Shown here in pieces: positions 18,349 through 42,311 of a stretch of DNA of 64,000 bases. Location of the stretch: positions 104,115-168,114 of the forward strand of contig JAFGCX010000011.1 in the NCBI GenBank assembly GCA_016932415.1. Reading direction: 5' to 3'. How positions within the stretch are numbered: position 1 is the stretch's first letter; every line of letters starts with the position of its first letter. Below the pieces are notes generated by a model. That model worked only from the letters and a program-made list of their open reading frames with translations. It was not told the origin of the DNA and did not search any database. Made by a program: the position numbers and the translations under genes. The stretch comes from Candidatus Krumholzibacteriota bacterium. GTDB taxonomy: Bacteria > Krumholzibacteriota > Krumholzibacteriia > Krumholzibacteriales > Krumholzibacteriaceae.

Positions 18349-18351
18349 CTC

Positions 18352-24023: not shown

Positions 24024-24148
24024 ATTACTCCCCTGCCGCTGCCCGCGCAGCTTCTGAAAAAGAACGATATGTAAAGGGAGAGTAAACGCTTTCCCGCAAT
24101 AGTTCAATTCAAGAATTGAAACGGGTTCCGACAGGCAGGAAACTGTCT

Positions 24149-27100
24149 TTATCTGAGGAGGATCATCTTGCGCGACACTGCCTTTCCTTCCACCGAGAGT
24201 CTGCAGAAATACACCCCCGCGCTCGCGAGTCTGCGGCTTCCGTCTTTTCCGTCCCACCTTATCTCGTGAGGCCCGGCCTGGCAGCCGCGGTCGAGGAGCG
24301 ATCGGACAAGCCTTCCACCCGCGTCATATATATCGATCGTCACGGGAGCCTCGCTTGAAAGTTCAAAACAGATCGTCACAGAGGGATTGAAGGGATTTGG
24401 AAAAAGCCGCGAAATGACCGGGGCTGGAAGAGTTCCCGGATCATTCGCTCCTTGAAGCGAGATCACCATATCCGTTGAATTCGTGTTGACCGAGACGATC
24501 GACTTCCCACCGTGATGAAAGACAGGTGATATATTGCCTCCCGAATCATTTCTCCACTCCGGGATCAGCTCGCGCAAGCCCTCTGGATTTTCCATTCCGA
24601 AAATCTCGATCCTTCCTTCAGCTCCCGGACAGTATATCCTGCCTTCCGAGATCGACACGCCTGAATATCCATATCCTTCCATCGCCTTCCTCGAGAGGAT
24701 CCTTCCCCCGGTCATCTCCGCGGCGTACAGCGCGGCCGCAGGTGGCGCCGTGGCCATGAAAAAGATGACTCCTTTTTCTATATCAACGCAAGCCGGGCCT
24801 GACAAGGCTCCATCAAAATCACTTCTCCAGATCGAAGATCCATCTTCAAGCGCCAGCACCTGCAGGATACCTGTAGAAGATATCGTCACCAGCCGGCCAG
24901 CGTGACAGATCATCGGAGCGGCCAGCGCCCCCCCGGAGGATGCCATCCATTCGATGGCGCCTGTCGAGGCGTGGATCCCTTTCAGTATGCCGGCCTGTGT
25001 CGAATAAACGAGGAGGTCGCCGCTTCCCGCCGGGGGAAAAGGACTGACAGCATCGCCTTCGCCAGGACGATCCTCCCAGAGTTTCCTGCCAGTAAATGGA
25101 TCGAAGGCGCAGACCCTGTCAATTCCACCAGTCGCCCTGTCGTGAAAAGCGACAAAGACTTTATTGCCGTGGACGACCGGGTCTTTAGCCACGCTGGTCT
25201 GATTGCCGGCCTCTTCCTCCACCCCGGCCGACCAGACGATCTCCGAAGAGGCCTGGTCGATCGCGTGCAGATACCTCCCGCATGAAGCGAACAGGACTCC
25301 CTTGAACCACGCCAGATACCGGGCTCCCGATTCAGAGATCCCGGGGAGTTCTCTTTTCCAAACGATAGAACCGTCAGCGAGAGAAATAGAGTAGACCGAG
25401 TTATGTTCCCCTTCTCTTCTTGAAACAAAGACCCTCGTTCCGGCAACAAGTGGCTGGCAGAGAAGCGATCCTTCTCCATCGAGTCCGCTCTCCCACTCTT
25501 TTTCCAGAGGAGGCTCTGCCGATCCGTAAAAAAATCCTGTGTGTCCCGTTCCACCCTGGCAAGATATTCCCTCTCCTTCCATCCCGGGATCTCCCGCGTA
25601 GGAGATCCAGAGTGGTATGCTGCTGTTCAGTCTTAATCCGGGCCCTTCCACTTCAAGCCGAAGACGCGACAGGGGCGCCTCGGCAATCTCTCCGATCTCA
25701 AACTCGAATCTCAGCGTCGCCTCGGAATTGACGGAGTCGAACACGGCGTATTCCCATTCAGTAGCCGTCTCCCCGCCAAGAGTTGAAATATCGAGGGATC
25801 CCCGGATTACCGATAGCTCGCCGGAGTGGTCTTTGAGACCGACCAGGCAGGCGATCCTTTCTCCCCTCCCCGCTCCACCGTCTCCATCCCCCGAAAGCTC
25901 CCTGATACCGATGACTGTCCGCTCGAGAGTTATTTTTCCAGTGATGGGGATCATAAATTCGATCGACGTCTCTCCCTGGTCGCAGTCGAGGCTCAGGTTC
26001 ACGCTCACTGCCTGCCCGGCCAGGGCCTCTTCAGCGACTGCCATACGGAGATCTATCGCTGTCTCATCAGAAGAAGTCATATCCCCGATGAAAAATTCCT
26101 TTTCCGACACGATAGAAATATACGGATCCCCGGTATCGACAGTAAGCGAAGCGGAAGTGATCTCCCGCCAGACATTCTTGACTGTCAGGGTAACCATGGC
26201 TGTCTCTCCCCCCTCGACCACTCCGTCTCCGTCCCCCGAATATTCCGCGCATAGATACCCGGCGACAGAGACCTTTATGCCCGGTTCCCTTTCAAGCGCG
26301 AGATCTGCCCTTACAAGCCCCGCTCCGGTGAATTCTTCCAGCCCCGGAGTGGAGATATTTTCCGCTGTATTGAGGATCTGGTTTTTTATCAACTCCGAAG
26401 TCTCGTATAATCCCGAGCTTTTCAGGAGAGCGGCAGTCCCGCTTACGAAAGGAGCGGCTACTGAAGTGCCGCTTCTATATCCGAACAGGCCTCCGGGTTC
26501 GGTCGACAAGATCGAGATCCCAGGCGCCGCGCAATCGGTCCAGCCACCATATCCCGAGAAGATCGCCGGCAGATCATTCCTGTCAACCGCGCCAACGGCG
26601 AGGCACTCGTCAAAAGCTCCCGGGTATACCGGCTCGTCGCTCCCGTTATTGCCTGAAGAAGCTATGATTATGACTCCGGCGTCGCTCGCATCTTTCACGG
26701 CCAGGTAAAGAGGCCCGGAATAACTTCCGCCAAAAGACATATTTATTATGTCCGCTCCGTTTTCAACGGCATAATCGAGCGCTTCGCAAATATCGCTCTC
26801 TTTAAGTTCTCCCGCGCCATCCCGGCGTTTATACCCCGCCCTGAGTATCATAAGCCTGCAACGGGGCGCGATCCCCTCAGTGCCGATACCATTACCTGCC
26901 CGGGAAGAGATTATTCCACTTATGTGTGTCCCATGGCCATGGATATCATCGGGGATAGGATCAGGCGGCCCGGGATCCTCTCCCGCCGCTACTTCTTCCT
27001 CCGTCGCGCTCACGAAATCATATCCATGCAGATCGTCGACATATCCATTACCATCGTCATCGATTCCGGAAAGGCCAGCGGCTTCAGCGATATTTATCCA

Positions 27101-27499
27101 GAGATTCTCCATCAGATCGGGATGATCGAGATCGCACCCCGTATCTATTACGGCAACGACGACACTGCTGTCACCTTCAGTTATAGCCCGAGCCTTCTCT
27201 ACCCCGATCCGGATCTTTCCCCAGGAATAAGGCCACAACGGATCGTGAGTTTCCAGGCAGAGCGATGTCTTGTTTATTTTTTCCATTTCATCGGACCCCG
27301 CGGCAGAATTCCCGCCCTCCTCGATGAACCCGTACCTGATATCTTTCTCGCAGATAAAAAATCTATTTTCTCCGGTGTCGCCGGACCTTTCGAGCCTGGC
27401 CCGGTCTGAGTATCGAGGGCTCCCTCCCGCGGGAGGGATGCAAATGATTACCGCGGCAAGAAAAAAACAGTTTCTCGCAGGTCTTTTGATTATTTTCAA
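24149..27499 (-). CDS. Secreted multidomain protein: S8 subtilisin-like protease, PQQ-like beta-propeller repeats and a C-terminal T9SS/Por-secretion-tail-like sorting domain
   Basis: Subtilase triad motifs VAVIDTGCD, HGTHISGI, GTSVAAPFVSG. Repeated xGxxxWxxx beta-propeller blades. C-terminus FPNPFNPSVTI...IYDAGGRLVR...WDGKDGSRRLASAGVYFCRL...SRKMILLR. Confidence 0.85.
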   Translation of the reverse strand: MKIIKRPARNCFFLAAVIICIPPAGGSPRYSDRARLERSGDTGENRFFICEKDIRYGFIEEGGNSAAGSDEMEKINKTSLCLETHDPLWPYSWGKIRIGVEKARAITEGDSSVVVAVIDTGCDLDHPDLMENLWINIAEAAGLSGIDDDGNGYVDDLHGYDFVSATEEEVAAGEDPGPPDPIPDDIHGHGTHISGIISSRAGNGIGTEGIAPRCRLMILRAGYKRRDGAGELKESDICEALDYAVENGADIINMSFGGSYSGPLYLAVKDASDAGVIIIASSGNNGSDEPVYPGAFDECLAVGAVDRNDLPAIFSGYGGWTDCAAPGISILSTEPGGLFGYRSGTSVAAPFVSGTAALLKSSGLYETSELIKNQILNTAENISTPGLEEFTGAGLVRADLALEREPGIKVSVAGYLCAEYSGDGDGVVEGGETAMVTLTVKNVWREITSASLTVDTGDPYISIVSEKEFFIGDMTSSDETAIDLRMAVAEEALAGQAVSVNLSLDCDQGETSIEFMIPITGKITLERTVIGIRELSGDGDGGAGRGERIACLVGLKDHSGELSVIRGSLDISTLGGETATEWEYAVFDSVNSEATLRFEFEIGEIAEAPLSRLRLEVEGPGLRLNSSIPLWISYAGDPGMEGEGISCQGGTGHTGFFYGSAEPPLEKEWESGLDGEGSLLCQPLVAGTRVFVSRREGEHNSVYSISLADGSIVWKRELPGISESGARYLAWFKGVLFASCGRYLHAIDQASSEIVWSAGVEEEAGNQTSVAKDPVVHGNKVFVAFHDRATGGIDRVCAFDPFTGRKLWEDRPGEGDAVSPFPPAGSGDLLVYSTQAGILKGIHASTGAIEWMASSGGALAAPMICHAGRLVTISSTGILQVLALEDGSSIWRSDFDGALSGPACVDIEKGVIFFMATAPPAAALYAAEMTGGRILSRKAMEGYGYSGVSISEGRIYCPGAEGRIEIFGMENPEGLRELIPEWRNDSGGNISPVFHHGGKSIVSVNTNSTDMVISLQGANDPGTLPAPVISRLFPNPFNPSVTICFELSSEAPVTIDIYDAGGRLVRSLLDRGCQAGPHEIRWDGKDGSRRLASAGVYFCRLSVEGKAVSRKMILLR

Positions 27500-27874: not shown

Positions 27875-28321
27875 ATGAAACTCGTAAGATGGATGCCGAC
27901 ATCGAACCTCAACAGGTTTGAAGATGAAGTAAACGATATTTTCAGCAGTTTTTTCCCGGCCAGACTCGATTACGCGCAGGGTGGCGGGAGAAATTGGGTT
28001 CCAAGGGTCAACGTCAGGGAACTCGATGAAAAATTCGAACTCAGCGCCGAGATTCCGGGGATGGAAAAGGACGAACTTTCCATTGAAGTCCAGGAAAACA
28101 CCCTTACTATAAGGGGAGAGAAGAAGACGGAAGAGAAGATCGAGAACGAGAAAATGCATATAAAAGAGATCTTTCGGGGAAAATTCGAAAGGTCTTTCAA
28201 GCTTCCCGAAAACATCAAGGCAGACGATGTAGACGCGGAATACAAAAACGGCATGCTGATCGTCTCGATCCCAAAAACTGAACCGGCAAAACCCAAAGAG
28301 ATCAATGTAAAGATCAAGTAA
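27875..28321 (+). CDS. Small heat-shock protein, Hsp20/alpha-crystallin family
   Basis: Alpha-crystallin domain (WVPRVNVRELDEKFELSAEIPGMEKDELSIEVQENTLTIRGEK...FERSFKLPENIKADDVDAEYKNGMLIVSIPK). Confidence 0.9.
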   Translation: MKLVRWMPTSNLNRFEDEVNDIFSSFFPARLDYAQGGGRNWVPRVNVRELDEKFELSAEIPGMEKDELSIEVQENTLTIRGEKKTEEKIENEKMHIKEIFRGKFERSFKLPENIKADDVDAEYKNGMLIVSIPKTEPAKPKEINVKIK

Positions 28322-28428: not shown

Positions 28429-28905
28429 TTACTTCGCCCAGGCGTTAGCTGTATCTTTCTTTTCCTTTTCGTCTTTTTCGATCTTCGGCGCGGCAGAAGA
28501 GGACCTTCCATCAGGGCTCATCTTGCAGGAACCTTCAAAGAAGACACCTTCGTCAATAACGAGACGTGTCGTTTTAATATCACCTTCAAGCCTTGAGCCC
28601 GCCTGAAGTTCTATTTTTTCTCTCGCGTCGATATTGCCTGTCATCTCTCCGCCGATAACCGCGCTTGCGACTTTAACGTCGGCTTTTACCTTGCCGCCCT
28701 TACCGACAACCAGAGTACCAGGACAATTAACAGTCCCCTCGAACTCTCCATCGATCCTCAAAGTGCCATCCTTGACCTCTATCGTACCTTTTATGGTGCA
28801 CCCCTGCCCGATTATCGAGTTCATCTTTCCTTCAGTCACCATGATCTCACCTTCTTTCCCGAACTTTGAAAACCCCATCACTGGATTCTTTTTTTTCATT
28901 ATCAT
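28429..28905 (-). CDS. Bactofilin (DUF583, CcmA/BacA family cytoskeletal protein)
   Basis: Beta-helical repeat core typical of bactofilins (TIKGTIEVKDGTLRIDGEFEGTVNCPGTLVVGKGGKVKADVKV...) with a K/E-rich disordered C-tail. Confidence 0.85.
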   Translation of the reverse strand: MIMKKKNPVMGFSKFGKEGEIMVTEGKMNSIIGQGCTIKGTIEVKDGTLRIDGEFEGTVNCPGTLVVGKGGKVKADVKVASAVIGGEMTGNIDAREKIELQAGSRLEGDIKTTRLVIDEGVFFEGSCKMSPDGRSSSAAPKIEKDEKEKKDTANAWAK

Positions 28906-28907
28906 CC

Positions 28908-29705
28908 TTATTGCAAAAGGTATTTCAGGGGATCGACATGAAGGTTGTTCTGCGTTACCTCAAAATGCAGGTGTGGCGCGGAACTTCTTCCGGTATTCCC
29001 CGAATAGGCTATCGTCTGCCCCCTGCCGATCCGGTCTCCCTTAATTACTACCAGTCTTTCATTGTGTCCGTAAAGTGTTTTTATTCCATATCCGTGGTCT
29101 ATTTTGACAAAATACCCGTACGTGTCGTCCCATGCAGCCTCTATCACATACCCTGCCGCGGCTGCCCTCACGGGCACTCCCTTTTCTACCCCTATATCTA
29201 TACCGGGATGGTAGTCCTTGTCCTTCTCCCCTCCGGCAATATTATACCCCTTGGTGATATACCCCCTTACCGGCCAGAAGCTCGGTATCGCGCTCATCAT
29301 GCTTGATTTTTCGTTGTCGGTCTCGCCTGCCATATCCAGGTCTCCCGCGCTGGCATGCTTCAGGGCGACACTGTCTCGAGAGCTCAATCCGAGCCCGAGC
29401 AGATTCCTCACCTTTAATTCCATCGCGTGCATCTCTGAAAGGTCCCGCATAAGCTCTCCGATCTTTTCATTCTTTTTCGTCAGCTCGGCGACCTGCCTTT
29501 CGAGTCTTACAGTCTCTCTTGTCTTTACAAGCAACCTCCCGTATGTCAGAACGAAAATCGATACGGTCAGCGCTCCAGCGGCCAATATGACCATGAAAAA
29601 ATAAAAAAGCCTGTATGGGATCTTGTATGTCCTGGTTTTTTTCAGATCGTGAGGAACGATTATCACCGAAAATGTCTCTTTTTCCATTTCTTTTCCCACG
29701 ACCAC
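28908..29705 (-). CDS. Membrane-anchored M23 (LytM) endopeptidase with coiled coil, LmdC/Csd-like
   Basis: Single TM (FYFFMVILAAGALTVSIFVLTY), coiled coil, intact M23 motifs HPGIDIG...D and GNTGRSSAPHLHFEV. Immediately upstream of the bactofilin with a 2-nt gap. Confidence 0.8.
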   Translation of the reverse strand: MVVGKEMEKETFSVIIVPHDLKKTRTYKIPYRLFYFFMVILAAGALTVSIFVLTYGRLLVKTRETVRLERQVAELTKKNEKIGELMRDLSEMHAMELKVRNLLGLGLSSRDSVALKHASAGDLDMAGETDNEKSSMMSAIPSFWPVRGYITKGYNIAGGEKDKDYHPGIDIGVEKGVPVRAAAAGYVIEAAWDDTYGYFVKIDHGYGIKTLYGHNERLVVIKGDRIGRGQTIAYSGNTGRSSAPHLHFEVTQNNLHVDPLKYLLQ

Positions 29706-29722: not shown

Positions 29723-30580
29723 TTATATCGCCGTCTCTATCCCCATTATTTTCAGAACTGCCTCAAGATCATCGTCTGAATAGTAATCTACGGTTATCGT
29801 CCCGCCCTTTTTGCCCGGCGTGATCCTCACCCTCGTGCCAAGATGCTTTTCCGCTCTTTCCTCAAGGGCTGTTATCGCCGCGTCTACCTTCCTTGCCGTT
29901 CTTCGTCTTTTTTTCCTTTTCCCGGGCGCTACCTCTATCTCGACTTCCCTTACCGATATCCCTTTCTCAACTACTTTCAGCGCCATCTCGATCCGTTTTT
30001 CATCCCCCTCGACAGCAAGTATCGCCCTGGCATGTCCGGCCTTGAGGCTTCCCTTTTCTATCAGTTCAAGCACCTTGTCAGGCAGGGACAGGAGCCTTAT
30101 CGTATTCGATACCGTCGTCCTGTCCTTACCGAGCAGCTGGGATATCTCTTTGACTGACAGGCCGAATTCATCTCTGAGCGCCTTGTATCCTCTTCCTTCC
30201 TCTACCGGATTAAGATCTTCTCTCTGAAGATTTTCAAGCAGGGCGAAATTCAAAGACTCCCTGTCCTTTATATCCCTGATAATAGCGGGGATCGTCGTTT
30301 TTCCCGCGATCTTCGAACTCCGGAGTCTTCTTTCCCCCATAATGAGCTGGTAGCGGTCGCCTTTTCTTCTTACGACGATCGGTTGGATCACTCCGTTTTT
30401 CCTGATTGATTCTGCGAGGTCCCCGAGCTGCTTCTCGTCGAAATAAGCCCGTGGCTGATACGGGTTCGGCTCGATTGAATCTATTTCCAGCTCCTTTACT
30501 CTTTCCGTTTCCGAGACGCTTTCTTTAAGGTCTTGTGATATAAGCGCTTCGAGCCCCCTGCCAAGCACAGTCCTTTTCAT
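29723..30580 (-). CDS. parB: Chromosome partitioning protein ParB (Spo0J)
   Basis: ParB box GERRLRSSKIAGKTTIPAIIRD and HTH region. 4-nt overlap with the parA stop. Confidence 0.9.
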   Translation of the reverse strand: MKRTVLGRGLEALISQDLKESVSETERVKELEIDSIEPNPYQPRAYFDEKQLGDLAESIRKNGVIQPIVVRRKGDRYQLIMGERRLRSSKIAGKTTIPAIIRDIKDRESLNFALLENLQREDLNPVEEGRGYKALRDEFGLSVKEISQLLGKDRTTVSNTIRLLSLPDKVLELIEKGSLKAGHARAILAVEGDEKRIEMALKVVEKGISVREVEIEVAPGKRKKRRRTARKVDAAITALEERAEKHLGTRVRITPGKKGGTITVDYYSDDDLEAVLKIMGIETAI

Positions 30581-31377
30581 GGGGATCCTCCCCTTTCTTT
30601 TTTCGCCGCGGGGTTCGTCCGCTTCTGTTTCTCTAAAATCTCTCTGGCAAGCATCAGGTAGCTTTTTGCGCCGCTACTCTGAACGTCATAAAGGATAACC
30701 GGTTTTCCAAAACTCGGCGATTCGCTCAGGCGCACATTTCTCGGGATTATACTGTCATAAACCTTTTCCCCAAAATAAGATATCGCTTCATCGGCAACCT
30801 GGCCCGACAACCTCAACCGTTTGTCAAACATCGTAAGCAGCACTCCCTCTATCGTCAGATCGGGATTGAGATGTTTCTGGACCATCCTGATTGTGCTTAG
30901 AAGCTGGCTCAACCCTTCAAGCGCGTAATATTCACACTGGATCGGTATCAACACTGAATCCGCCGCGGTCAACGTGTTCAACGTCAGGAGTCCCAGGCTC
31001 GGCGGACAATCTATTATTATAAAATCATATCTGTCCACAAGCGGCGCGAGAGCGGTTTTCAGTTTTCTTTCCCTCGCAAGCTGTGATACCAGCTCGATCT
31101 CCGCCCCGTTAAGCCTTGGATGGGAAGGGACAAGGTCGAGAAGCCCCGTCTTCTCAATTATATCCTCGACCCTCGTCTTTCCTATAAGCGCCTCATAAAT
31201 AGTCGGTTGTCCATTATCTATCCTTACGCCGAGCCCACTGCTCGCATTTGCCTGGGGATCGGCATCTACAAGAAGGACCTTTTCCTCTATCGCCCCGAGG
31301 CTTGCTCCGAGATTGACCGATGTCGTCGTCTTTCCGACACCACCCTTCTGATTCGCTACTGCTATTATTTTTCCCAT
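30577..31377 (-). CDS. parA: Chromosome partitioning ATPase ParA (Soj)
   Basis: Deviant Walker A KGGVGKTTTSVNLGASLG, ParA family length. Confidence 0.9.
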   Translation of the reverse strand: MGKIIAVANQKGGVGKTTTSVNLGASLGAIEEKVLLVDADPQANASSGLGVRIDNGQPTIYEALIGKTRVEDIIEKTGLLDLVPSHPRLNGAEIELVSQLARERKLKTALAPLVDRYDFIIIDCPPSLGLLTLNTLTAADSVLIPIQCEYYALEGLSQLLSTIRMVQKHLNPDLTIEGVLLTMFDKRLRLSGQVADEAISYFGEKVYDSIIPRNVRLSESPSFGKPVILYDVQSSGAKSYLMLAREILEKQKRTNPAAKKERGGSP

Positions 31378-31413: not shown

Positions 31414-32637
31414 TTACGGCTGGCTCATAAGCCATCCCGAATAATCTACATAGATATCCGGTTGCGGTGGCAGGAAGTCAAAGCCGTCATAAATCCTCTC
31501 CTGGATATCACTCTCATTTGTGACTCCCCAGAAGTTATATCTCGCGTCAATACCCGAATCGTTGAAATACTGAAAAAGCATAATGTCGTATCCGCCCGAC
31601 GCCTTATCGTTAAGATATATCGAATTATAGTTTATGACCGGTAGCGCGTAATATGAGATCTTTATCCCGTCGCCGACGTTCGTCGCGATCGTGCACCCTT
31701 CGATTGCCACATCATATATATCTCCCGATCCGTCTTCATCTATTTCGATCCAGATTCCGTATCCCGAGTTATCTCTTATCTCGCAATTGGTTATCTCTGC
31801 GTCAGCATCGAGGATATGTATGCCCCCGGCATTGTCCGAGACCCTGCAGTCTTCGACGGAAATCTCGGATTCTTCAACGTTTACGCCGATCCCTACTCCG
31901 TCATGGACAAATATCGAGTCAAGAACGACATTAGCTCCATCTTCAACGCTGATCCCCCTGACAGCCATCGTTATGTTGGCGTTTAATATGCTGCCCGACG
32001 CATCCGGCCCATCAAAGAGGATCCCTCTCCACACCCCGTCCTCCCCCGGACAGATATTCGGCTTGAAGATGACGGGCGATCCTGCCGTCCCGACAACCTC
32101 AAGCCTCCCAAAGACATTCAACCCTCCTTCTTCCTGATCGATCACAACCGTCACTCCCGCATGTATGCGGAGAGTGGCAGAGGAGCCGACGAAGACCGGT
32201 TGTGGCGAATCTATCATATAAAACGACCCGTTATCTGACAGCTCGGTAATCCCCGAAATGACAGGGAGAGCTTCTCCCACCTCTATCTCCGCGCTGCTTG
32301 TGCTTTCGTCCAACCGGTCTGTGGCCGTCACTTTAACCGTATATATTCCAGGCTCATCCGGCGCTATCCAGACAACCGAAAACCCCTCGCCTGATTCCGG
32401 GTAAAACTCTCCGTATTCAGCCTCCCATAGGACCGTGACCGGATCATCGTCAGGATCAGGGGCGGAACAGTAAAGCTCCACATCCCCCCCAGCCCCGACA
32501 AAACACTTCCCTATCGATATTTTGGGATCGTCAGGTGGCTTGTTATGGAATCCCAGGGACTGGTCGCAGCTTGAAAAGGTAGCCACTGAAAGGGTAAATA
32601 CCCCTAACACAATGAAACAATATGACTTGACCTGCAT
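31414..32637 (-). CDS. Lipoprotein with Ig-like domain and right-handed parallel beta-helix (PbH1) repeats
   Basis: Signal plus lipobox (TFSSC). Repeated GxxVxxNxIxDNxGxGI-type beta-helix rungs (CRVSDNAGGIHILDADAEITNCEIRDNSGYGIWIE...). Lies between rsmG and parA. Confidence 0.55.
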   Translation of the reverse strand: MQVKSYCFIVLGVFTLSVATFSSCDQSLGFHNKPPDDPKISIGKCFVGAGGDVELYCSAPDPDDDPVTVLWEAEYGEFYPESGEGFSVVWIAPDEPGIYTVKVTATDRLDESTSSAEIEVGEALPVISGITELSDNGSFYMIDSPQPVFVGSSATLRIHAGVTVVIDQEEGGLNVFGRLEVVGTAGSPVIFKPNICPGEDGVWRGILFDGPDASGSILNANITMAVRGISVEDGANVVLDSIFVHDGVGIGVNVEESEISVEDCRVSDNAGGIHILDADAEITNCEIRDNSGYGIWIEIDEDGSGDIYDVAIEGCTIATNVGDGIKISYYALPVINYNSIYLNDKASGGYDIMLFQYFNDSGIDARYNFWGVTNESDIQERIYDGFDFLPPQPDIYVDYSGWLMSQP

Positions 32638-32735
32638 TTCCTTCTCCCTGTCAATCAGATGGGGTCCAGATGATTATAGGGTCGCTTTTATGATAAATCA
32701 ATGGAAATCTCTCCCGGGCGGGCGGAAAGGGATGA

Positions 32736-32751
32736 CGTTTCACGTGAAACG
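32736..32751. promoter_or_regulatory. parS site (CGTTTCACGTGAAACG)
   Basis: Perfect 16-bp palindrome whose inner 14 bp equal the parS consensus tGTTTCACGTGAAACa. Upstream of the parAB-containing operon near oriC. Confidence 0.75.
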
Positions 32752-32829
32752 CTGATGATGGAAGCCGGCCCCCCTCCCGGCACCTGTCCGGGCCGTCCCC
32801 GCATTCTTTTCTTCGTCTGTCGGCTCCTC

Positions 32830-32845
32830 CGTTTCACGTGAAACG
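32830..32845. promoter_or_regulatory. parS site (CGTTTCACGTGAAACG), second copy
   Basis: Identical 16-mer 94 bp from the first copy, just downstream of the rsmG stop. Confidence 0.75.
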
Positions 32846-32851
32846 TTGCGG

Positions 32852-33523
32852 TCAGTCCTTTTCTCTTCTGAAGAGCAGCAACGATCCCCTCTCTCCTTCT
32901 GCCGGCTCTGAAAAATCGAGGGTCATCTTCCCAGAATATCCCTCCAGCTCCCATTCCCACTCGCTTCCCTTTATCGTCAGGTACTTTCCGCCCGCGCCGA
33001 GAAGCGATTCAGCAAGAGGGAGGATCGCCGGCAGCCTCCCGGCCGCCTTGGAGATAACAAGGTCGTAAACGGCCTTTCCGCTGTCAAGCGCCGCATCCCC
33101 GCGGGTCCTGGTCCCCTCGAGGCTCATAAGAACGGCCAGCCTTTCAAGAAAGAGAGCTGCTTTTTCCTTCCTTTCATAGAAAGTGATCTCGGTCCCCGGA
33201 GATAGAATCTTCCATATTATCCCCGGAAAACCGTACCCACTCCCTATGTCGGCGACCCTGATTGCCTCCTGATCCTTTTCCTGCTTTCTGGCCAGCGCTC
33301 CCGTCCTTTCGGCGAAATAAAGCATCAGCAGAGAATCGACCACCTGCCTTTCCAGGGATTCACCGAAGCTGCCCCTGGCGACAAGGTGCATCTTTTCACC
33401 CCATTCGATCTGCTCCCTGGCGAAGAGTTTTATTCTTTCGATCCCGGCATCGTCGAGCCTTCCGGGAAAAAGTCCTTCCGCCCTCTCGATGATCTTCTCT
33501 GCTATCTTTGTCTTTTCTGTCAT
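32852..33523 (-). CDS. rsmG: 16S rRNA (guanine527-N7)-methyltransferase RsmG (GidB)
   Basis: SAM-binding motif DIGSGYGFPGI. 4-nt overlap with the mnmG stop. Canonical position. Confidence 0.85.
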   Translation of the reverse strand: MTEKTKIAEKIIERAEGLFPGRLDDAGIERIKLFAREQIEWGEKMHLVARGSFGESLERQVVDSLLMLYFAERTGALARKQEKDQEAIRVADIGSGYGFPGIIWKILSPGTEITFYERKEKAALFLERLAVLMSLEGTRTRGDAALDSGKAVYDLVISKAAGRLPAILPLAESLLGAGGKYLTIKGSEWEWELEGYSGKMTLDFSEPAEGERGSLLLFRREKD

Positions 33524-35433
33524 TTTCCGGTTTTCCCCGTCTCCGGGCCGTTTTCCACTCGTTTTCTGCTTTTTTCCAGAAAGATCATCAGTATCGACAG
33601 GTCGGAATTTCTCACCCCGGTGATCCTCGATGCCTGGCCAAGGGTATGAGGCTTGAATCTCGCGAGCTTTTCCCTCGCCTCGGTGCTCAGCGCTTCCAAT
33701 TCGAACGAAAAGCCTTCCGGTATTACCATCTTGTCCATTTTCAACAACTTGTGCGCTATCCTCTTCTGCCTCGATATATACCCGTCATACTTGACCTCTA
33801 TCGCCAGCATCCCGAGTTCCCTCTCGGAGAGCCCCAGTCCCCTGTCGCCGAGCACTTTTTCTATTTTTTCCGCTCCTATCCCCGGGTGTCTCGCCAGCTG
33901 GATCGCCGGCCTTGCTTCTTTCACCTCAGGGATCTCCACCCCGCCAAAGACCTTGTTTATCTTCGCCGCCGGGATGATCTCCCTTTCCAGCCTTCTTTTT
34001 GCCTTCAGGACCTTTTTCTTCCTCGAGATCATCTCGAGCCACAAGCCTTTGTCGAGAAGCCCGAACTTTACTCCGTACCGGAAAAGCCTTTCGTCGGCAT
34101 TGTCCTGCCTGAGCAGCAGCCTGTGTTCCGCCCTCGAGGTAAACATCCTGTATGGTTCATCGATCTCTTTTGTTATCAGATCATCGACCATGACTCCGGC
34201 GTATGCCATCTGGCGTCCCGGGATAAAAGGCGCCTCACCCCTGAGGGACAGCGAAGCGTTGATTCCAGCCAGGATTCCCTGGGCTGCCGCCTCTTCATAT
34301 CCCGATGTCCCGTTTACCTGCCCGGCAAAGTAGAGGCCTTCGATCCTCTCCGATTCGAGGGACGCGCTGATCTGGTGGGGGGGGAAAAAGTCGTACTCTA
34401 TCGCGTATCCATATCTTACTATTTCCGCCTGCTCAAGCCCTTCTATGGTTCTTATCATCTTTTCCTGGATCTCCGCCGGAAGGCTTGTCGAGAGACCGTT
34501 GATATAGATCTCTTCGGAATCCCTGCCCTCCGGTTCGAGAAATATCTGATGTCTCGGACGATCTGAGAACCTGACGACTTTGTCTTCGATCGAAGGGCAG
34601 TATCTCGGCCCCACTCCCTTTATCTGCCCCGAAAAGAGGGGGGCCCGGCTTATATTGTCCTTGATGATCTCGTGGGTCCTCGCGTTTGTATATGTTATGT
34701 GGCATGAGATCTGGTCGACTTCAAGGGATTTTGTCCTGAAAGAAAAGGGGCTTGGGAATATATCGCCCGGCTGTTCTTCGCATCTTGAAAAATCTATGCT
34801 TTCTCTCCTCAGCCTCGCCGGAGTCCCCGTCTTAAGCCGCCCTCTCTCTATTCCCTTTCTCGCAAGATCGTCGGAGAGGCGGCATGATGGCGGCTCTCCT
34901 TCCCTTCCCCCTGGTATTTTCCTTTCTCCTATATGCATCAACCCGTTAGGAAAAGTCCCGAGCGCCATTATTACCTTCCGCCCCGCTATCCTCTCCCCCG
35001 AAACCGCAACTCCTACGACCTTTCCACTTTCCACGATTATTTCTTCGACCTCCGCCTCTGCCAGATCGAGCTGTTCGGCCAGGACGAGCGCCTCAAGCAT
35101 CCTTTTGTGATATACTTTCTTGTCGGCCTGCGCCCTTGGAGACCAGACCGCCGGCCCTTTGGCCCTGTTCAGCATCCTGAACTGTATCCCCGCCGCGTCG
35201 ATGCAAAGCCCCATCTCCCCTCCGAGGGCGTCGACCTCTCTTACAAGCTGACCTTTTGCCAGGCCGCCGATGGCGGGGTTGCATGGCATCCTAGCTATGT
35301 CGCCCGTATTGATAGTCGCCAGCAGAGTATCGTTTCCCATCCGAGCCGCCGCGAGAGCTGCTTCGCAACCGGCGTGTCCAGCACCAACGACTATAATGTC
35401 ATATCTTTTATCAAGGGTTTTAGTAATAATCAT
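33520..35433 (-). CDS. mnmG: tRNA uridine-5-carboxymethylaminomethyl modification enzyme MnmG (GidA)
   Basis: FAD-binding N-terminus YDIIVVGAGHAGCEAALAAARMG, full-length GidA homology. Confidence 0.95.
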   Translation of the reverse strand: MIITKTLDKRYDIIVVGAGHAGCEAALAAARMGNDTLLATINTGDIARMPCNPAIGGLAKGQLVREVDALGGEMGLCIDAAGIQFRMLNRAKGPAVWSPRAQADKKVYHKRMLEALVLAEQLDLAEAEVEEIIVESGKVVGVAVSGERIAGRKVIMALGTFPNGLMHIGERKIPGGREGEPPSCRLSDDLARKGIERGRLKTGTPARLRRESIDFSRCEEQPGDIFPSPFSFRTKSLEVDQISCHITYTNARTHEIIKDNISRAPLFSGQIKGVGPRYCPSIEDKVVRFSDRPRHQIFLEPEGRDSEEIYINGLSTSLPAEIQEKMIRTIEGLEQAEIVRYGYAIEYDFFPPHQISASLESERIEGLYFAGQVNGTSGYEEAAAQGILAGINASLSLRGEAPFIPGRQMAYAGVMVDDLITKEIDEPYRMFTSRAEHRLLLRQDNADERLFRYGVKFGLLDKGLWLEMISRKKKVLKAKRRLEREIIPAAKINKVFGGVEIPEVKEARPAIQLARHPGIGAEKIEKVLGDRGLGLSERELGMLAIEVKYDGYISRQKRIAHKLLKMDKMVIPEGFSFELEALSTEAREKLARFKPHTLGQASRITGVRNSDLSILMIFLEKSRKRVENGPETGKTGK

Positions 35434-35469: not shown

Positions 35470-36828
35470 TTATTTTCCTATACAAAACCGGCTGAAGATC
35501 GTTTCGAGCAGTTCTCCCGCTATCGACCGCCCCGTGATCTTCCCGAGCGCTTCTGCCGCTTCCCTGATCTCGAGGCTCATTATCTCCGCCCTGCCCTTCC
35601 CTTCGAGTTCTTCGAGCATCCTTTTCAGGCCTCGCGAGCACTCTTTCAGGGCCGCGGCGTGCCTCGAGCTTACCGCGCCATTTTCCCTGACTCTTTCGGC
35701 TATATCTTTCCTTATCGTGCCGGTGTGGATCATATCCCTGAGCCTGGAGATGTTCTCCCCCGTCTTTGCCGACACCTCTATCTCCGGCCCGCTTAGGCCA
35801 CGGTCCTCCGAAGCGATCACTACCCCCAGATCGCGCTTGTTGAAGACTATTATATGGTTCTTCTTCTCTATCCTGGCTATTTCCCTTTTCGTTTCCTCGT
35901 CAAGCCCGGCGCTGCCATCTACAACGAAGAGTATCAGGTCCGATCCTTCGGCAGCCTTCCTTCCGATCGATATTCCCCTCGCTTCGATCTCGCACCCCGT
36001 TTCCGCGATCCCCGCCGTATCTTCGAGAAAATATGTGAATCCGCCGATATGGATCCTTTCCCTGAGAAGGTCCCTCGTAGTCCCCGGAATAGCAGATACT
36101 ATAGCCCTTTCCTCACCCAGTAGCGCGTTGTAGATGCTGCTTTTTCCCGCGTTTCTCGGCCCCAGCACTGTCACCCTGATGCCCTGCCTGAGTTTTTTCC
36201 CGGCGATCTCAGACTCTATCATTCCTTCTATCTCGCCGATCGCTCCGTCGATATTCTCGCGAAGAATCTCACTGTCGTATGTCTCGATATCTTCTTCCGA
36301 AAAATCGATTGAAAGCTCGATCAGGGCAAGCTGCCGCAGGAGAATCGCCTCTATGTCTCCTATCTTTCTTGACAGCGACCCTTCAAGCTGTTCGAGCGCG
36401 ACGCGTCCCTGGAGCTTTGTCTCCGCCGATATAAGATCAACGACCGCTTCGGCCTGTGCCAGGTCGAGCTTTCCTTTCAGGTAGGCTCTTTTCGTGAATT
36501 CTCCCGGGCCGGCGATCTCCGCGCCAAGCCTGACCGCTTCTTCTATGATCGAGGAGTAGACGTAGATGCTTCCATGGCAGGATATCTCTATGACATCCTC
36601 TCCCGTATATGAATTCGGCGCAAACATCGCCGTGACGAGGACCTCGTCGATCTGTTCGCCGGTGGAATTTTTTATGATCCTTTTGTATACCCTGTGTGAT
36701 TCCCGGCGGCCAGCCGGATCCGCCATCGAATCGAGGATTCCGAGCGCGTCGGGTCCCGAGATCCTGATCACGGCTATTCCCGAGACTCCAGGCGGAGTAC
36801 TCAGGGCAACGACAGTGGTTCCGTCCAT
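35470..36828 (-). CDS. mnmE: tRNA modification GTPase MnmE (TrmE)
   Basis: G-domain motifs (GPRNAGKSS, DTAG), C-terminal CIGK motif. Confidence 0.95.
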   Translation of the reverse strand: MDGTTVVALSTPPGVSGIAVIRISGPDALGILDSMADPAGRRESHRVYKRIIKNSTGEQIDEVLVTAMFAPNSYTGEDVIEISCHGSIYVYSSIIEEAVRLGAEIAGPGEFTKRAYLKGKLDLAQAEAVVDLISAETKLQGRVALEQLEGSLSRKIGDIEAILLRQLALIELSIDFSEEDIETYDSEILRENIDGAIGEIEGMIESEIAGKKLRQGIRVTVLGPRNAGKSSIYNALLGEERAIVSAIPGTTRDLLRERIHIGGFTYFLEDTAGIAETGCEIEARGISIGRKAAEGSDLILFVVDGSAGLDEETKREIARIEKKNHIIVFNKRDLGVVIASEDRGLSGPEIEVSAKTGENISRLRDMIHTGTIRKDIAERVRENGAVSSRHAAALKECSRGLKRMLEELEGKGRAEIMSLEIREAAEALGKITGRSIAGELLETIFSRFCIGK

Positions 36829-36831
36829 ATT

Positions 36832-37533
36832 CTATTTTCTGCCAGACCGGTTCGATTTTCTCTCCCGGCCCTTGTCCGCGGAGACAAAGACCTTTCTCAT
36901 CTCCCCGTTCCCGACGGTATAAGTCGTTATCCCTTCCATCCCGGCGAGTGTCATATGGATGATACGCCTCTCGGACGCTTTCATCGGTTCGATTCCGACT
37001 TCCCTCTGCGTCTTTTTAGCTCTTTCGGCCGCTTTCTCAGCTTTCTGCCTGAGGATCTCCTGCCTGTTCTTCAGGTATCCGCCAACATCGACAGTCAACC
37101 TCTGGTATCCGCCCATCTTCCTCGACACGATCCTCCCGATCAGGTGCTGAAGCGAGTTCAGCGTGTCTCCCTTCCTGCCGATGAGCAGCCCGTCGACACC
37201 AGCCGTTTCTATATTTATATATGTCGAATCGTCTATCGTGTCAGAAAATATCCTGTACCCGACATCCAGCCCTTTCATTATAAGCCCGGTGACTTCGTCG
37301 GCTACCTCCTCTATCCCCTTCGATCCATTTTTCATCGACACCTTGACTCTCGCGCTCCTGGCGCCGAAGATCCCCAGGACCCCCTTCTGTCCGGGATCTA
37401 TTATCTCAATATCTACATCTTCTATTTTCGAACCAAGGTCTTTCAGCGCCTTCTCCAGCGCTTTCTCTACAGTCTTTCCCTCTACCTCTACCGGTCTGCT
37501 ATTTATTCTTTCCTGTCTCCCGTGCTTTTCCAT
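36832..37533 (-). CDS. jag: Jag/KhpB RNA-binding protein (Jag_N, KH, R3H)
   Basis: KH and R3H domain signatures. Canonical position between yidC and mnmE. Confidence 0.8.
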   Translation of the reverse strand: MEKHGRQERINSRPVEVEGKTVEKALEKALKDLGSKIEDVDIEIIDPGQKGVLGIFGARSARVKVSMKNGSKGIEEVADEVTGLIMKGLDVGYRIFSDTIDDSTYINIETAGVDGLLIGRKGDTLNSLQHLIGRIVSRKMGGYQRLTVDVGGYLKNRQEILRQKAEKAAERAKKTQREVGIEPMKASERRIIHMTLAGMEGITTYTVGNGEMRKVFVSADKGRERKSNRSGRK

Positions 37534-37657: not shown

Positions 37658-39457
37658 CTATGCGGTTACTTCGCCTTCCGCCGCTTCGGTCTCTATCGCC
37701 TTATGTACATAATACTGCTGGACGATCGACAGTATGTTGTTGATCAGCCAGTAAAGCACCAGGCCCGAAGGCATTCCGTAAAAAATAAACGTAAATACCA
37801 CCGGCATCATCGTTGTCATCATCTTGGTCTGCGCTGCCGGCCCCGCGTCTCCAGTCGGAGAGCCACCCATCTTTGACTGGACGAACATCGCCACGCCCAT
37901 CAGAAGAGGAAGCAGGTGGAACTCGCTTCCGATGACAGGCAGGCTGAAACCAAACCCGAACAGGACGTCCGGCGATGAAAGATCATTGATCCACAACCCA
38001 AGGGGGGCGTCTCTGAGTTCAATCGTGTTTCTGAGAACGTTAAAAAGAGCTATGAAAACAGGCATCTGAAAAAGAAGAGGCAGGCATCCGCCAAGGGGAT
38101 TGACCCCCGCCTCCTTGTACATCTTCATCGTTTCCTGGTTCAGTTTTTCTTTTTCGTTCTTGTACTTCTCCTGCAGGGCTTTGAGTTTTGGCTGGAGCCG
38201 CTGCATATCTTTCATCGATTTGAAGCTCTTGTGCGTGAGCCTGTAGAACAGGACTTTCGTCAGGATCGAGAGTATTATTATTATCAGCCCGTAGTTGGGA
38301 ATGAACCCTTTCATCCACATCATCAGGCGAAGGACAAAAACGCTGAAAAATCGCATCTTGCCAAGCTCTATTGTCCTTTCCAGCCCTACTCCGTAATCCT
38401 TCAGCCCGTTCATGTCAAGAGGCCCGAAATAACATTTGAACGAATCTTCGACTTTTCTCGGGTCTCCCCGGAATGGATAAAATATCGAATACCCGGACAT
38501 GCTGCTGTCCTTGTCTCCGAGCATCTCCAGGACTCCCGAGCGCTGCTCGTCCACTATTACCGCGCTGAGGAAGTATTTGCTTCTCGCGCCGGCCCAAACG
38601 ACCATGCCTTCCTGGACTTTCCTGTCCGTTTTGCCGAATTTGCCCGAGCCCTCCTTATAATATTCATCCCCCACGCGCCCGAGCGAGGCCATCTGCCTTA
38701 TCTCCCATTTTCTGTCTTTCTCGTTCAGCGCCAGGCCGCTCTCCCACGCGATCGCGTACCCACTGGCCCCTTTCATCTCTCCCTCTCTTACCAGGGAGAT
38801 CGCCACGCCTACTTCGTAGCCCTCTCGCGAGAACCGGAACCTTTTTTCGACAGTCCCTCCCGAAGCCCCTCTCCATCTGAAGAGGACTGTCGCCTCGATG
38901 CTTTCTCCGGTCAGGTCGATCTCCTCACCGTCATAGATCTCTCTGCCGTTGACAAGAGCGTCAAACCGGGCGCCGGAAAAGCCGGTCCTCTCCATGTCTT
39001 TCTCAACGTAGAGGGAAAGAGCCCCCTTCGCCCCTTCGGGAACGAGCTCAACATCCCCTCCGTCGCTCCTGGCGAATTCCCTCAGCTTAATACTCGTGAT
39101 CTCCCCGCCGAGACTGCTCAGCGCGACTCTCATCTTCTCCGTAGCGACGGTAAAATTCCTTGTCTCCGCCGGATCATCAGGGGAAAAGAGCCTCCCCGTT
39201 CCCTCCCGCGCCTTGCTTTCGAAAAACTCCCCCTCCGCCTTTTCTCCGCCCGCCGGCAGATCCTCATCCGCGCCCTCCCTCGCGCTGTATTCCGATCCGG
39301 CCTCGAGGGAAGCGAGTGAATCGGCTACGGCCTGCTCGCGCAGTTCCACGGCTCTTCTGAGCGCCGCCTCTTTCTGCCTGGGCGCCACATAGAGCATCTG
39401 CCATCCGAGCAATATCGCAAAGGTCACTGCTATAGCCAGAATAGAGCGCTTATCCAT
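37658..39457 (-). CDS. yidC: Membrane protein insertase YidC
   Basis: Large periplasmic P1 domain followed by the conserved 5-TM core (LLTKVLFYRL...GVNPLGGCLPLLFQMPVFIALFNVL). Confidence 0.9.
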   Translation of the reverse strand: MDKRSILAIAVTFAILLGWQMLYVAPRQKEAALRRAVELREQAVADSLASLEAGSEYSAREGADEDLPAGGEKAEGEFFESKAREGTGRLFSPDDPAETRNFTVATEKMRVALSSLGGEITSIKLREFARSDGGDVELVPEGAKGALSLYVEKDMERTGFSGARFDALVNGREIYDGEEIDLTGESIEATVLFRWRGASGGTVEKRFRFSREGYEVGVAISLVREGEMKGASGYAIAWESGLALNEKDRKWEIRQMASLGRVGDEYYKEGSGKFGKTDRKVQEGMVVWAGARSKYFLSAVIVDEQRSGVLEMLGDKDSSMSGYSIFYPFRGDPRKVEDSFKCYFGPLDMNGLKDYGVGLERTIELGKMRFFSVFVLRLMMWMKGFIPNYGLIIIILSILTKVLFYRLTHKSFKSMKDMQRLQPKLKALQEKYKNEKEKLNQETMKMYKEAGVNPLGGCLPLLFQMPVFIALFNVLRNTIELRDAPLGLWINDLSSPDVLFGFGFSLPVIGSEFHLLPLLMGVAMFVQSKMGGSPTGDAGPAAQTKMMTTMMPVVFTFIFYGMPSGLVLYWLINNILSIVQQYYVHKAIETEAAEGEVTA

Positions 39458-40627: not shown

Positions 40628-40636
40628 TGTGGATAA
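40628..40636 (-). promoter_or_regulatory. DnaA box TGTGGATAA (perfect consensus, reverse orientation)
   Basis: Exact reverse complement of TTATCCACA. Confidence 0.7.
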
Positions 40637-40695
40637 CGTCATGACATCATATTGAAAACCCCGCCGCTAATGTTGTTATTATTAAAGTTATAGAG

Positions 40696-40715
40696 TTTTC
40701 CACATTTGTGGAAAA
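40696..40715. promoter_or_regulatory. Palindromic pair of near-consensus DnaA boxes TTTTCCACA-tt-TGTGGAAAA overlapping the TTG at 40706
   Basis: Two 8/9 matches to the DnaA box arranged as a 20-bp inverted repeat immediately upstream of dnaA. A likely autoregulatory site. Confidence 0.5.
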
Positions 40716-40774
40716 CAAGAAAGATTTTGAAAGCTGCCGGCCTTTCCGACGGACCGGTATCTTCGGTCATTGCT

Positions 40775-42130
40775 ATGAGACTAGAACAAGACCCTGGCAT
40801 CGACATATGGGAAACGATCCTCGACAAGCTTAAAAAGGTCGTAAACGCGCAGAGCTTTCAGACCTGGTTTGCCCCCACCAGGCTGGCCGGATATGAAAGG
40901 GGCGTCCTGCTGGTCGAAGGACCAAATTCGTTTTTCATCGACTGGCTCGCCGAACACCACATCGACAAGATAACCGAGGCCGCCTCGGAAGTCCTTGGCG
41001 AAAAAGTAGTTATAGAGTTTTCGTCTCCCTCTCCGCGCAGGACTGTCCGCGCGGAGAAGCCTGTTGAGCGCTCCGTACTTGTCAGAGAGCCGGTCATCCT
41101 TCCCAACAGCGTTCAACTCAACAGCCGATACACGTTCCAGGAGTTTGTAGTGGGAAACGAAAACCTCCTGGCTCACGCGGCGGCCCTCGCAGTAGCTGAA
41201 AAACCGGCCCAGACCTACAACCCCCTTTTCATCTACGGCGGCCCCGGCCTGGGAAAGACTCATCTTCTGCAGGCTATTGGCCATTTTGTCCTCGAGGAAC
41301 ATCCCGGAATGAGGATCTCGTATGTCTCGACCGAGAGTTTCATGAACGAGCTTATCCGTTCGATCAGAAACGGCGAGACCTTCGAGTTCAAGGAACGCTA
41401 CCGCAATATAGATATTCTCCTGATAGACGACATCCACTTTCTCGCCGGCAAGGAAAGGACGCAGGAAGAGTTTTTCTATACTTTCAACGCTCTCCACAAC
41501 GCCAGCAAACAGATCGTCTGTACGAGCGACCGGCCCCCGAAAGAGATCCCGTCACTTCAGGACAGGCTTACTTCACGTTTCGAGTGGGGTCTTATAACCG
41601 ACATCCAGCCTCCAGACCTCGAGACCAGGGTCGCGATCCTGCGCAAAAAGGTCGAAAAGGAGATAATGCCTATCCCTGAAAGCGTCATCTTTCTTATAGC
41701 GGAGAACGTAAGGGGAAATACGAGGGAGCTGGAGGGGTCGCTCGTCAAGATCCTCGCCTGCGCCAGCCTGACAAACCAGGATATCAATGTCGATATGGCC
41801 GGTGAGGTACTGAAAGTCTTTATCTCGGGAGCTGAGAAGAAAAAGATCTCTATAAAGTCGATACAGCGTGCTGTCGCGGCGGAATTCGACATCCCCGTAC
41901 ACACGCTTTCCGCCAAGACGAGGATGAGCCGCGTCGTTGCGGCGCGCCAGGTCGCCATTTTTCTTTCCCGCGAACTTACCTCTCTTTCGCTGGTGCAGAT
42001 AGGAAAAGGTTTCGGGGGCAGGGACCACAGCACGGTCCTGCATTCGATCAAAAAGATAGAAACATCCATTTCCGTCGACCCGTCGCTTGAAAGGCAGATA
42101 TCCGCTCTCAGAAAAGATCTTGAGACCTGA
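40775..42130 (+). CDS. dnaA: Chromosomal replication initiator DnaA
   Basis: Domain I (IWETILDKL...FQTWF), AAA+ Walker A GGPGLGKTHLL, sensor motifs, C-terminal HTH (KTRMSRVVAARQVAIFLSREL). ATG at 40775 preferred. The track's TTG start at 40706 overlaps the DnaA-box palindrome. Confidence 0.95.
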   Translation: MRLEQDPGIDIWETILDKLKKVVNAQSFQTWFAPTRLAGYERGVLLVEGPNSFFIDWLAEHHIDKITEAASEVLGEKVVIEFSSPSPRRTVRAEKPVERSVLVREPVILPNSVQLNSRYTFQEFVVGNENLLAHAAALAVAEKPAQTYNPLFIYGGPGLGKTHLLQAIGHFVLEEHPGMRISYVSTESFMNELIRSIRNGETFEFKERYRNIDILLIDDIHFLAGKERTQEEFFYTFNALHNASKQIVCTSDRPPKEIPSLQDRLTSRFEWGLITDIQPPDLETRVAILRKKVEKEIMPIPESVIFLIAENVRGNTRELEGSLVKILACASLTNQDINVDMAGEVLKVFISGAEKKKISIKSIQRAVAAEFDIPVHTLSAKTRMSRVVAARQVAIFLSRELTSLSLVQIGKGFGGRDHSTVLHSIKKIETSISVDPSLERQISALRKDLET

Positions 42131-42145
42131 TCTCTTACCGCCTCG

Positions 42146-42154
42146 TTATCCACA
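42146..42154 (+). promoter_or_regulatory. DnaA box TTATCCACA (perfect)
   Basis: Exact consensus 16 nt after the dnaA stop. Confidence 0.7.
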
Positions 42155-42294
42155 TCCTCGCTGTTTATAAAATGTTGATTCCTGTTGGTATCTTTTCCCA
42201 TGGGCATAATTGTTGAGATTTTCCACTTGTTCACACAAATGCCAACACCGCTTCGCCTCCTGCCGCTCGAGCCTGTTCTTGAACACTTGGGTGA

Positions 42295-42311
42295 TTATCC
42301 ACATATCCACA
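42295..42311 (+). promoter_or_regulatory. Tandem DnaA boxes TTATCCACA + TATCCACA
   Basis: One exact box and an adjacent 8/9 box in direct orientation. Confidence 0.7.

Follow-up and report, generated by a model that had tools for sequence, protein, structure and literature searches.

The gap between rsmG and a gene string including parA and parB on a contig of Krumholzibacteriota holds two identical short palindromes. Which function do they serve? An earlier note on this DNA had taken them for nucleation sites of the partition protein ParB, i.e. for parS. Besides such a centromere-like role, the palindromes could represent operators of the neighboring promoter, elements that act at the RNA level, or binding sites of a protein other than ParB. 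The term window denotes the whole stretch of DNA that was analyzed, 64,000 nucleotides in length, and positions are given in its numbering unless another accession is named.

Sequence of the palindrome pair

The 16-mer CGTTTCACGTGAAACG is found twice in the 64-kb window, as a proximal site (32736..32751), situated 34 nt 5' of the -35 hexamer of the downstream operon, and as a distal site (32830..32845), which starts 6 nt past the rsmG stop codon. Both sites are exact matches without strand assignment and lie within one intergenic gap; their starts are 94 bp apart, with 78 bp in between. Positions and spacing are thus as the earlier note had described them, and each of the two 16-mers shows perfect dyad symmetry. 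Neither a third copy of CGTTTCACGTGAAACG with up to three mismatches nor an additional match to the degenerate core GTTNCACGTGNAAC with up to two mismatches is present in the 64-kb window. No exact copy of CGTTTCACGTGAAACG appeared in 100 dinucleotide-preserving shuffles, and on these grounds (two copies versus 0/100) chance and a dispersed repeat were rejected as explanations at the scale of the window. Beyond the 16-mer, the two copies agree at just two of the next three bases. Since their similarity ceases 3 bases past the palindrome, a more extended duplication was discarded, and what is repeated is the palindrome as such.

The inner 14 bp of both copies had been equated with the parS core, and they are indeed identical to the published consensus sequences GTTTCACGTGAAAC of M. 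smegmatis and TGTTNCACGTGAAACA of B. subtilis and C. glutamicum (PMC7022226 Table 1). Compared with the parS consensus tGTTtCAcGTGAAAca (14-bp core GTTTCACGTGAAAC), both copies match at all core positions (14/14), and the outer pair is C/G where this consensus has T/A.

Conservation in Krumholzibacteriota

The comparison within the phylum comprised ten lineages, namely the window and nine relatives, whose contigs were fetched by exact-protein look-up and whose ParB proteins are 60-80% identical. All nine relatives (9/9) share the gene order rsmG, beta-helix/PKD, parA, parB, M23, bactofilin, followed by an HSP20 gene in opposed orientation. Two to three parS cores are located at the 3' end of rsmG or in the gap between rsmG and the beta-helix gene in each of the ten lineages (10/10). 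An alignment of five orthologous gaps has a mean column identity of about 59%, and the 14-bp core of the distal site is invariant in it. The islands of invariance are formed by both cores, by a TTT..TTGATTT and a TATAaT block, and by a GGAG ribosome-binding site. The proximal site is kept in the relatives with zero to two mismatches in the core.

The outer base pair takes the forms C..G, T..A, A..C, T..G, C..A, and C..T across the lineages. Since this pair of the 16-mer varies among the relatives, the functional unit is most likely the 14-bp core. The perfect 16-bp palindrome put forward in the earlier note is therefore true of the window, but the unit conserved among relatives is the 14-bp core alone. 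The four closest lineages have their sites 93-95 bp apart, whereas the distance amounts to 24, 24, 57/58, 70, 89, and 256 bp elsewhere; a fixed spacing of 94 bp was rejected as a functional feature, because values near it are restricted to the four closest lineages. The footprint left in the lineages represents the strongest computational evidence for a function of the putative parS pair.

Beyond the pair, the 5-8 kb flanks examined in the nine relatives contain one parS with one mismatch, in lineage L168. There (GCA_964599375.1; 10174-10189 and 5839), the one-mismatch palindrome CGTTTCACGGGAAACG is located directly 3' of the bactofilin gene. The annotated start codon of the L168 beta-helix gene adjoins the parS pair and is probably placed about 31 codons too far 5'; from MRGNISYI onward, the protein matches the N-terminus of its counterpart in L174.

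Gene context and position relative to the replication origin

The gap harboring the pair extends from the rsmG stop codon to the start of the beta-helix/PKD open reading frame (32637) and covers positions 32638-32851. Its location between rsmG and the beta-helix lipoprotein and parA genes is as proposed earlier, whereas its length was measured as 214 bp and not 213 bp. All genes left of about 40 kb are encoded on the minus strand. The string 5' of the parS pair is composed of yidC (37658-39457), jag (36832-37533), mnmE (35470-36828), mnmG (33520-35433), and, as its last member, rsmG (gidB; 32852-33523; Pfam GidB, E = 5.5e-22), all on the minus strand, and this synteny is kept in the relatives. 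On the other side of this string, yidD, rnpA, and rpmH are followed by the plus-strand genes dnaA, dnaN, recF, and gyrB. The palindromes are positioned 5' of the string containing parA and parB, as had been claimed. This string runs from beta-helix/PKD via parA, parB, and M23 to bactofilin, entirely on the minus strand and with intergenic distances of 36, -4, 17, and 2 nt, and is closed by the convergent HSP20 gene (27875-28321, plus strand). Pfam and NCBIfam searches corroborated these gene identities.

The replication-origin region (40628..42311, no strand assigned) encompasses dnaA (40706-42130, plus strand; TIGR00362 DnaA, E = 2.5e-162) between two clusters of DnaA boxes at 40628-40715 and 42146-42311. 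The window contains three perfect DnaA boxes TTATCCACA, all in the gaps flanking dnaA, where three one-mismatch boxes are located as well. One perfect and two near-perfect boxes make up the cluster 5' of dnaA, two perfect boxes and one near-perfect box that in the dnaA-dnaN gap. The presence of DnaA-box clusters on both sides of dnaA suggests a bipartite oriC. Gene orientation switches at the origin region, and the GC skew changes its sign at 40-44 kb, with negative values as far as about 42 kb and positive ones starting at about 42-44 kb. The palindrome pair is 7.86-7.97 kb away from the dnaA start (40706) and about 9.3-9.6 kb away from the DnaA boxes between dnaA and dnaN, in agreement with the 8-9 kb from dnaA estimated before. 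Based on the distance to dnaA, the flip in GC skew, and the DnaA boxes, the parS pair thus belongs to the origin region and sits on the left replichore.

ParA and ParB encoded downstream

A spacer of 36 nt separates the parA gene (30577..31377, minus strand) from the preceding beta-helix gene, and the reading frames of parA and parB share 4 nt. The product of parA is a Soj-type Walker ATPase (Pfam AAA_31, E = 2.9e-66, and CbiA), and the translation carries the Walker A motif KGGVGKT. The parB gene (29723..30580, minus strand), about 2.2 kb downstream of the palindrome pair, codes for a chromosomal CTPase-type ParB of 285 aa with the Pfam domains ParB_N, HTH_ParB, and ParB_C. Thermus Spo0J (1vz0) is the top PDB match of this protein (E = 1.5e-56), followed by the ParB proteins of Myxococcus, Bacillus, Caulobacter, and Helicobacter, some of them bound to parS or to a CTP analog. 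ParB displays the N-terminal motif LGRGLEAL and the CTP-pocket motifs GERRLR and ENLQRED. A second ParB-like gene was not found in the 64-kb window.

ParB was aligned directly to the DNA-binding domain of Caulobacter ParB from the parS co-crystal 6s6h. In this alignment, R154, N159-T160, S165, G182, and R185 correspond to Caulobacter R173, N178-T179, A184, G201, and R204. R173 and G201 are residues of the parS type, whereas Noc has Q and R at these positions and also carries a permissive Lys at 179 or 184 (PMC7383237). None of the specificity residues varies among 13 lineage ParBs. With R and G at the specificity positions instead of the Q and R of Noc, ParB is therefore classified as parS-type, and it is the protein expected to bind both palindromes. 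Caulobacter Q162 is reported to contact parS and to be conserved in ParB and Noc (PMC7383237); its counterpart in the ParB of the window is Val143, and V, I, S, A, or D is found at this position across the 13 lineage ParBs. The S172 equivalent (residue 153) is D, N, or E in the lineage, with the parS core unchanged.

Distribution and resemblance to known systems

The survey across phyla covered 160 diverse parB loci from species-representative genomes and JGI metagenomes, among the matches listed. The ParBs among the listed matches in these two sets are at most 47% identical to the ParB of the window. A parS core with up to one mismatch is present in the fetched DNA of 87 of the 160 loci (among the matches listed). 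Adjacent parA and sufficient upstream sequence were available for 96 loci among the matches listed; 43 of these have a parS within 350 bp 5' of parA, at a median distance of 125 bp, and at least two sites are found in 10. Since parS lies shortly upstream of parA in 43/96 loci, this placement is commonplace. The earlier note had spoken of a textbook placement for ParB nucleation, with which both these diverse parAB loci and the model systems agree. In the first 80 loci of the survey, the outer pair is T..A in 79 of 94 sites and C..G in none (0/94), i.e. the C..G pair is a habit of the lineage rather than a rule.

Mycobacteria use the same 14-bp core GTTTCACGTGAAAC in few sites, all of which lie in the ori domain (PMC7022226 Table 1); M. 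smegmatis has three such ori-proximal sites (PMC7022226). In Krumholzibacteriota, by contrast, parA is separated from the sites by a gene for a beta-helix lipoprotein, and genes for an M23 peptidase and a bactofilin come after parB. Binding of ParB to parS is experimentally established in mycobacteria, whereas the site in Krumholzibacteriota is known from its sequence. Caulobacter ParB and the ParB of the window share the same fold and the parS-type residues R and G, but differ at Q162, which is Val in the latter. The parS clusters of Caulobacter lie about 8 kb from ori, and the DNA around them is occupied by ParB over about 10 kb (PMC5815017); at least five parS sites are present in this organism, compared to two within the 64 kb of the window. 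The parS/Spo0J system of B. subtilis (consensus TGTTNCACGTGAAACA) belongs to the same palindrome family and follows the same CTP-dependent clamp model. It differs in having 10 parS sites, of which the ori domain contains 8, and in its outer bases, T...A versus C...G in the window.

Proposed function and mechanism

The palindromes are very probably chromosomal parS, that is, centromere-like sequences at which the ParB from the gene 2.2 kb downstream is loaded. This reading is supported by the identity of the core, the proximity to the origin, the conservation in the lineage, and the adjacent ParB and ParA. Two counterpoints have to be considered. The C...G outer pair is unusual when set against the 94 sites from elsewhere, but it is free to vary within the lineage and falls outside the positions discussed as specificity-determining. 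In addition, the equivalent of Q162 is a Val that is itself variable in the lineage.

The steps by which such a parS pair would act follow the established model of Bacillus, Caulobacter, and Myxococcus, with the CTP clamp as described in PMC8367383. A ParB dimer would read each 14-bp core via its HTH, with R154 and G182 as the equivalents of the parS-reading R173 and G201. Binding to parS would lead to the CTP-dependent closing of the N-terminal gate of ParB, whereupon the closed clamp would escape from parS and slide onto the flanking DNA (PMC8367383). Repeated loading at the two sites would build up a partition complex over several kb beside oriC, and two sites instead of one may provide redundancy and faster loading. 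The LGRGLEAL peptide of ParB would stimulate nucleoid-bound ParA-ATP, and the duplicated origin regions would thereby move apart. The partition complex probably loads SMC as well. As no smc gene is present in the 64-kb window, in which the 1153-aa ORF at 12771-16232 encodes Mfd/TRCF, we infer this loading step purely from the model systems. ParB clamps would also pass over the promoter of the parA/parB operon, because the proximal site is located 34 nt 5' of its -35.

The operon promoter and the question of autoregulation

A sigma-70-type promoter (TTGATT-17-TATAAT, 10/12 consensus match) is predicted at 32673..32701 on the minus strand for the beta-helix-parA-parB-M23-bactofilin string; it is the sole promoter-like site in 32300-33100, and transcription is predicted to start near 32666. 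In the alignment of five gaps, the TTGATTT and TATAaT blocks of the promoter show no variation, and a similar motif is found in 9/10 lineages. A T-rich tract just 5' of the -35 is also conserved in the lineages. Another promoter-like site, at 31391-31364 immediately 5' of parA, was discounted as the promoter of this gene, since its -10 falls 3' of the parA start codon.

The palindromes could be chiefly operators at which ParB or its clamps tune this promoter, with segregation being secondary or relying on sites elsewhere. The 34 nt between the proximal site and the predicted -35 would suit such a role, and the distance is fairly steady: it measures 28-37 nt in seven of the ten lineages (the window, L162, L164, L166, L170, L174, and L175), while their inter-parS spacing varies between 24 and 95 bp. 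However, it amounts to 87 and 125 nt in L172 and L173, respectively (L168 is not scorable), and the proximal parS adjoins the promoter without overlapping the -35 and -10 hexamers, which are missed by the distal site, too. The steady distance is suggestive only, as it fits a functional coupling but also simple inheritance in a compact gap among kin genomes.

ParB represses the genes adjacent to parS3 and parS4 of P. aeruginosa, which are intergenic and 5' of genes like the pair in the window, and KorB-type ParBs are true regulators (PMC7022226). The repressed genes of P. aeruginosa are, however, PA0011 and PA0013 and not the par operon, and these sites are among the exceptions to the rule that chromosomal ParB mostly has little effect on neighboring genes (PMC7022226). 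Loss of Spo0J leaves the expression of parS-adjacent genes unchanged in B. subtilis, effects are small in V. cholerae and S. pneumoniae, and chromosomal ParA is devoid of the DNA-binding N-terminal domain that serves plasmid par autoregulation (PMC7022226). Regulation would, moreover, add to the centromere role and not replace it. A primarily regulatory function of the palindromes is accordingly judged very unlikely. A measurable, modest feedback of ParB on the operon promoter, secondary and additional to the centromere role, is conceivable, although rather unlikely; the earlier note had raised such autoregulation as a possibility.

It is still far less credible that the palindromes operate at the RNA level, either as a terminator or stabilizing hairpin at the 3' end of rsmG or as a structure in the 5' leader. 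The distal copy does start 6 nt past the rsmG stop, and folding of the gap RNA pairs both copies into a long stem (z-score -2.2), but two identical palindromes pair automatically, which makes this fold uninformative. Neither copy is followed by a U-tract, the terminator scan of the gap was empty, and the stem of the palindrome is AT-rich and not GC-rich as in an intrinsic terminator. No Rfam family was matched, the sole hit being a spurious, sub-threshold eukaryotic lncRNA inside rsmG (17.7 bits vs a gathering score of 60). In L162, L164, and L168 the distal site is situated within the rsmG coding sequence or across its stop. Among the relatives, the spacing varies from 24 to 256 bp, and the exact DNA is kept without covariation. 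The proximal copy is located 5' of the predicted promoter and would therefore be absent from the downstream transcript. With no terminator, U-tract, or Rfam match, and with a fold that reflects the mutual pairing of the palindromes, the terminator/RNA-structure reading was discarded.

That a protein other than the adjacent ParB binds the palindromes, e.g. a Noc-like factor or a bHLH-like CACGTG binder, has a probability close to nil: Noc and ParB are close kin, and the Noc model TIGR04285 ranks first among NCBIfam models for ParB, yet it stays below threshold (222.8 bits vs a cut-off of 315), the genes of the window include no further ParB-like one, and an identity as NBS, a palindrome that differs from parS at two positions per half-site (PMC7383237), is dismissed by the specificity positions of both partners, the DNA carrying parS bases instead of NBS bases at both discriminating positions and ParB having R and G, not Q and R, as well as T and S, not Lys, at 179 and 184.

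Partners of parA and parB in the operon

A PKD and right-handed beta-helix protein (31414..32637, minus strand; Pfam Beta_helix, NosD, PKD), a probable lipoprotein, is encoded by the gene that comes first behind the parS pair and the promoter. Its N-terminus comprises a signal peptide followed by a Cys-Asp/Glu lipobox, which is kept in the orthologs; searches of PDB and NCBIfam returned no sequence relative and no match, respectively. The gene is found 5' of parA in all ten lineage loci (10/10), at a distance of 2-71 nt, and in 0/160 of the diverse parB loci among the matches listed. A gene for an exported protein is presumably co-transcribed with parAB in the lineage.

An LmdC-like M23 peptidase (28908..29705, minus strand; Pfam Peptidase_M23, E = 3.5e-32) is encoded 17 nt after parB. 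It is bitopic, with an N-terminal cytoplasmic tail and a transmembrane helix, and its PDB relatives include TagE, EnvC, and ShyA. The string ends 2 nt further with the bactofilin gene (28429..28905, minus strand; Pfam Bactofilin, E = 9e-30). M23 peptidase and bactofilin follow parB in 10/10 lineage loci; among the matches listed, a bactofilin is located downstream of parB in 20/160 and an M23 peptidase in 9/160 of the diverse loci. M23 peptidases and bactofilins are known to be paired in a conserved module, LmdC/BacA (PMC10945521). In Myxococcus, bacM, coding for a cell-shape factor, lies directly 3' of parAB, and ParABS relies on other bactofilins as scaffolds (PMC5703909).

The parS pair and the promoter might jointly confer ParB-responsive control on a lineage-specific segregation-envelope operon, or the bactofilin might anchor the ParB-parS complex, comparable to Myxococcus BacNOP/PadC. 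Such an arrangement appears unlikely. The gene order, shared by 10/10 lineages, and the parS-promoter distance of 28-37 nt in 7/10 are compatible with a ParB-responsive operon. If it existed, ParB loading at the newly replicated origin would tune both the segregation and the morphogenesis modules.

Significance and further features of the window

The parS pair is a new instance, from an uncultured phylum, of a thoroughly known element, and the understanding of ParABS is unchanged by it. Its sequence, pairing, adjacency to parAB, and distance to oriC agree with the findings in model bacteria and are what a standard parS scan would predict. It marks the origin-proximal centromere of an uncultured candidate phylum and aids in orienting and quality-checking MAG contigs near oriC. 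It also adds one further deep-branching lineage with an unchanged 14-bp parS core, and it offers a clean, conserved parS-promoter-operon cassette suited to heterologous tests.

Several other genes of the window deserve mention. An S8 subtilase of 1116 aa (24149-27499, minus strand) combines a PQQ/beta-propeller region with FlgD-Ig and Por_Secre_tail domains, the latter being a C-terminal sorting signal of the T9SS; type IX secretion is thus implied for the Krumholzibacteriota source organism. The subtilase gene is missing from the equivalent position in the relatives examined. An ABC-F ATPase is encoded at 22338-24257 in the window and is also present in L162. Downstream of the par string, a MoxR AAA+/DUF58/BatA-VWA cluster (Bat aerotolerance-like; 16222-20282, minus strand), preceded by an S9 peptidase, is kept in most relatives.
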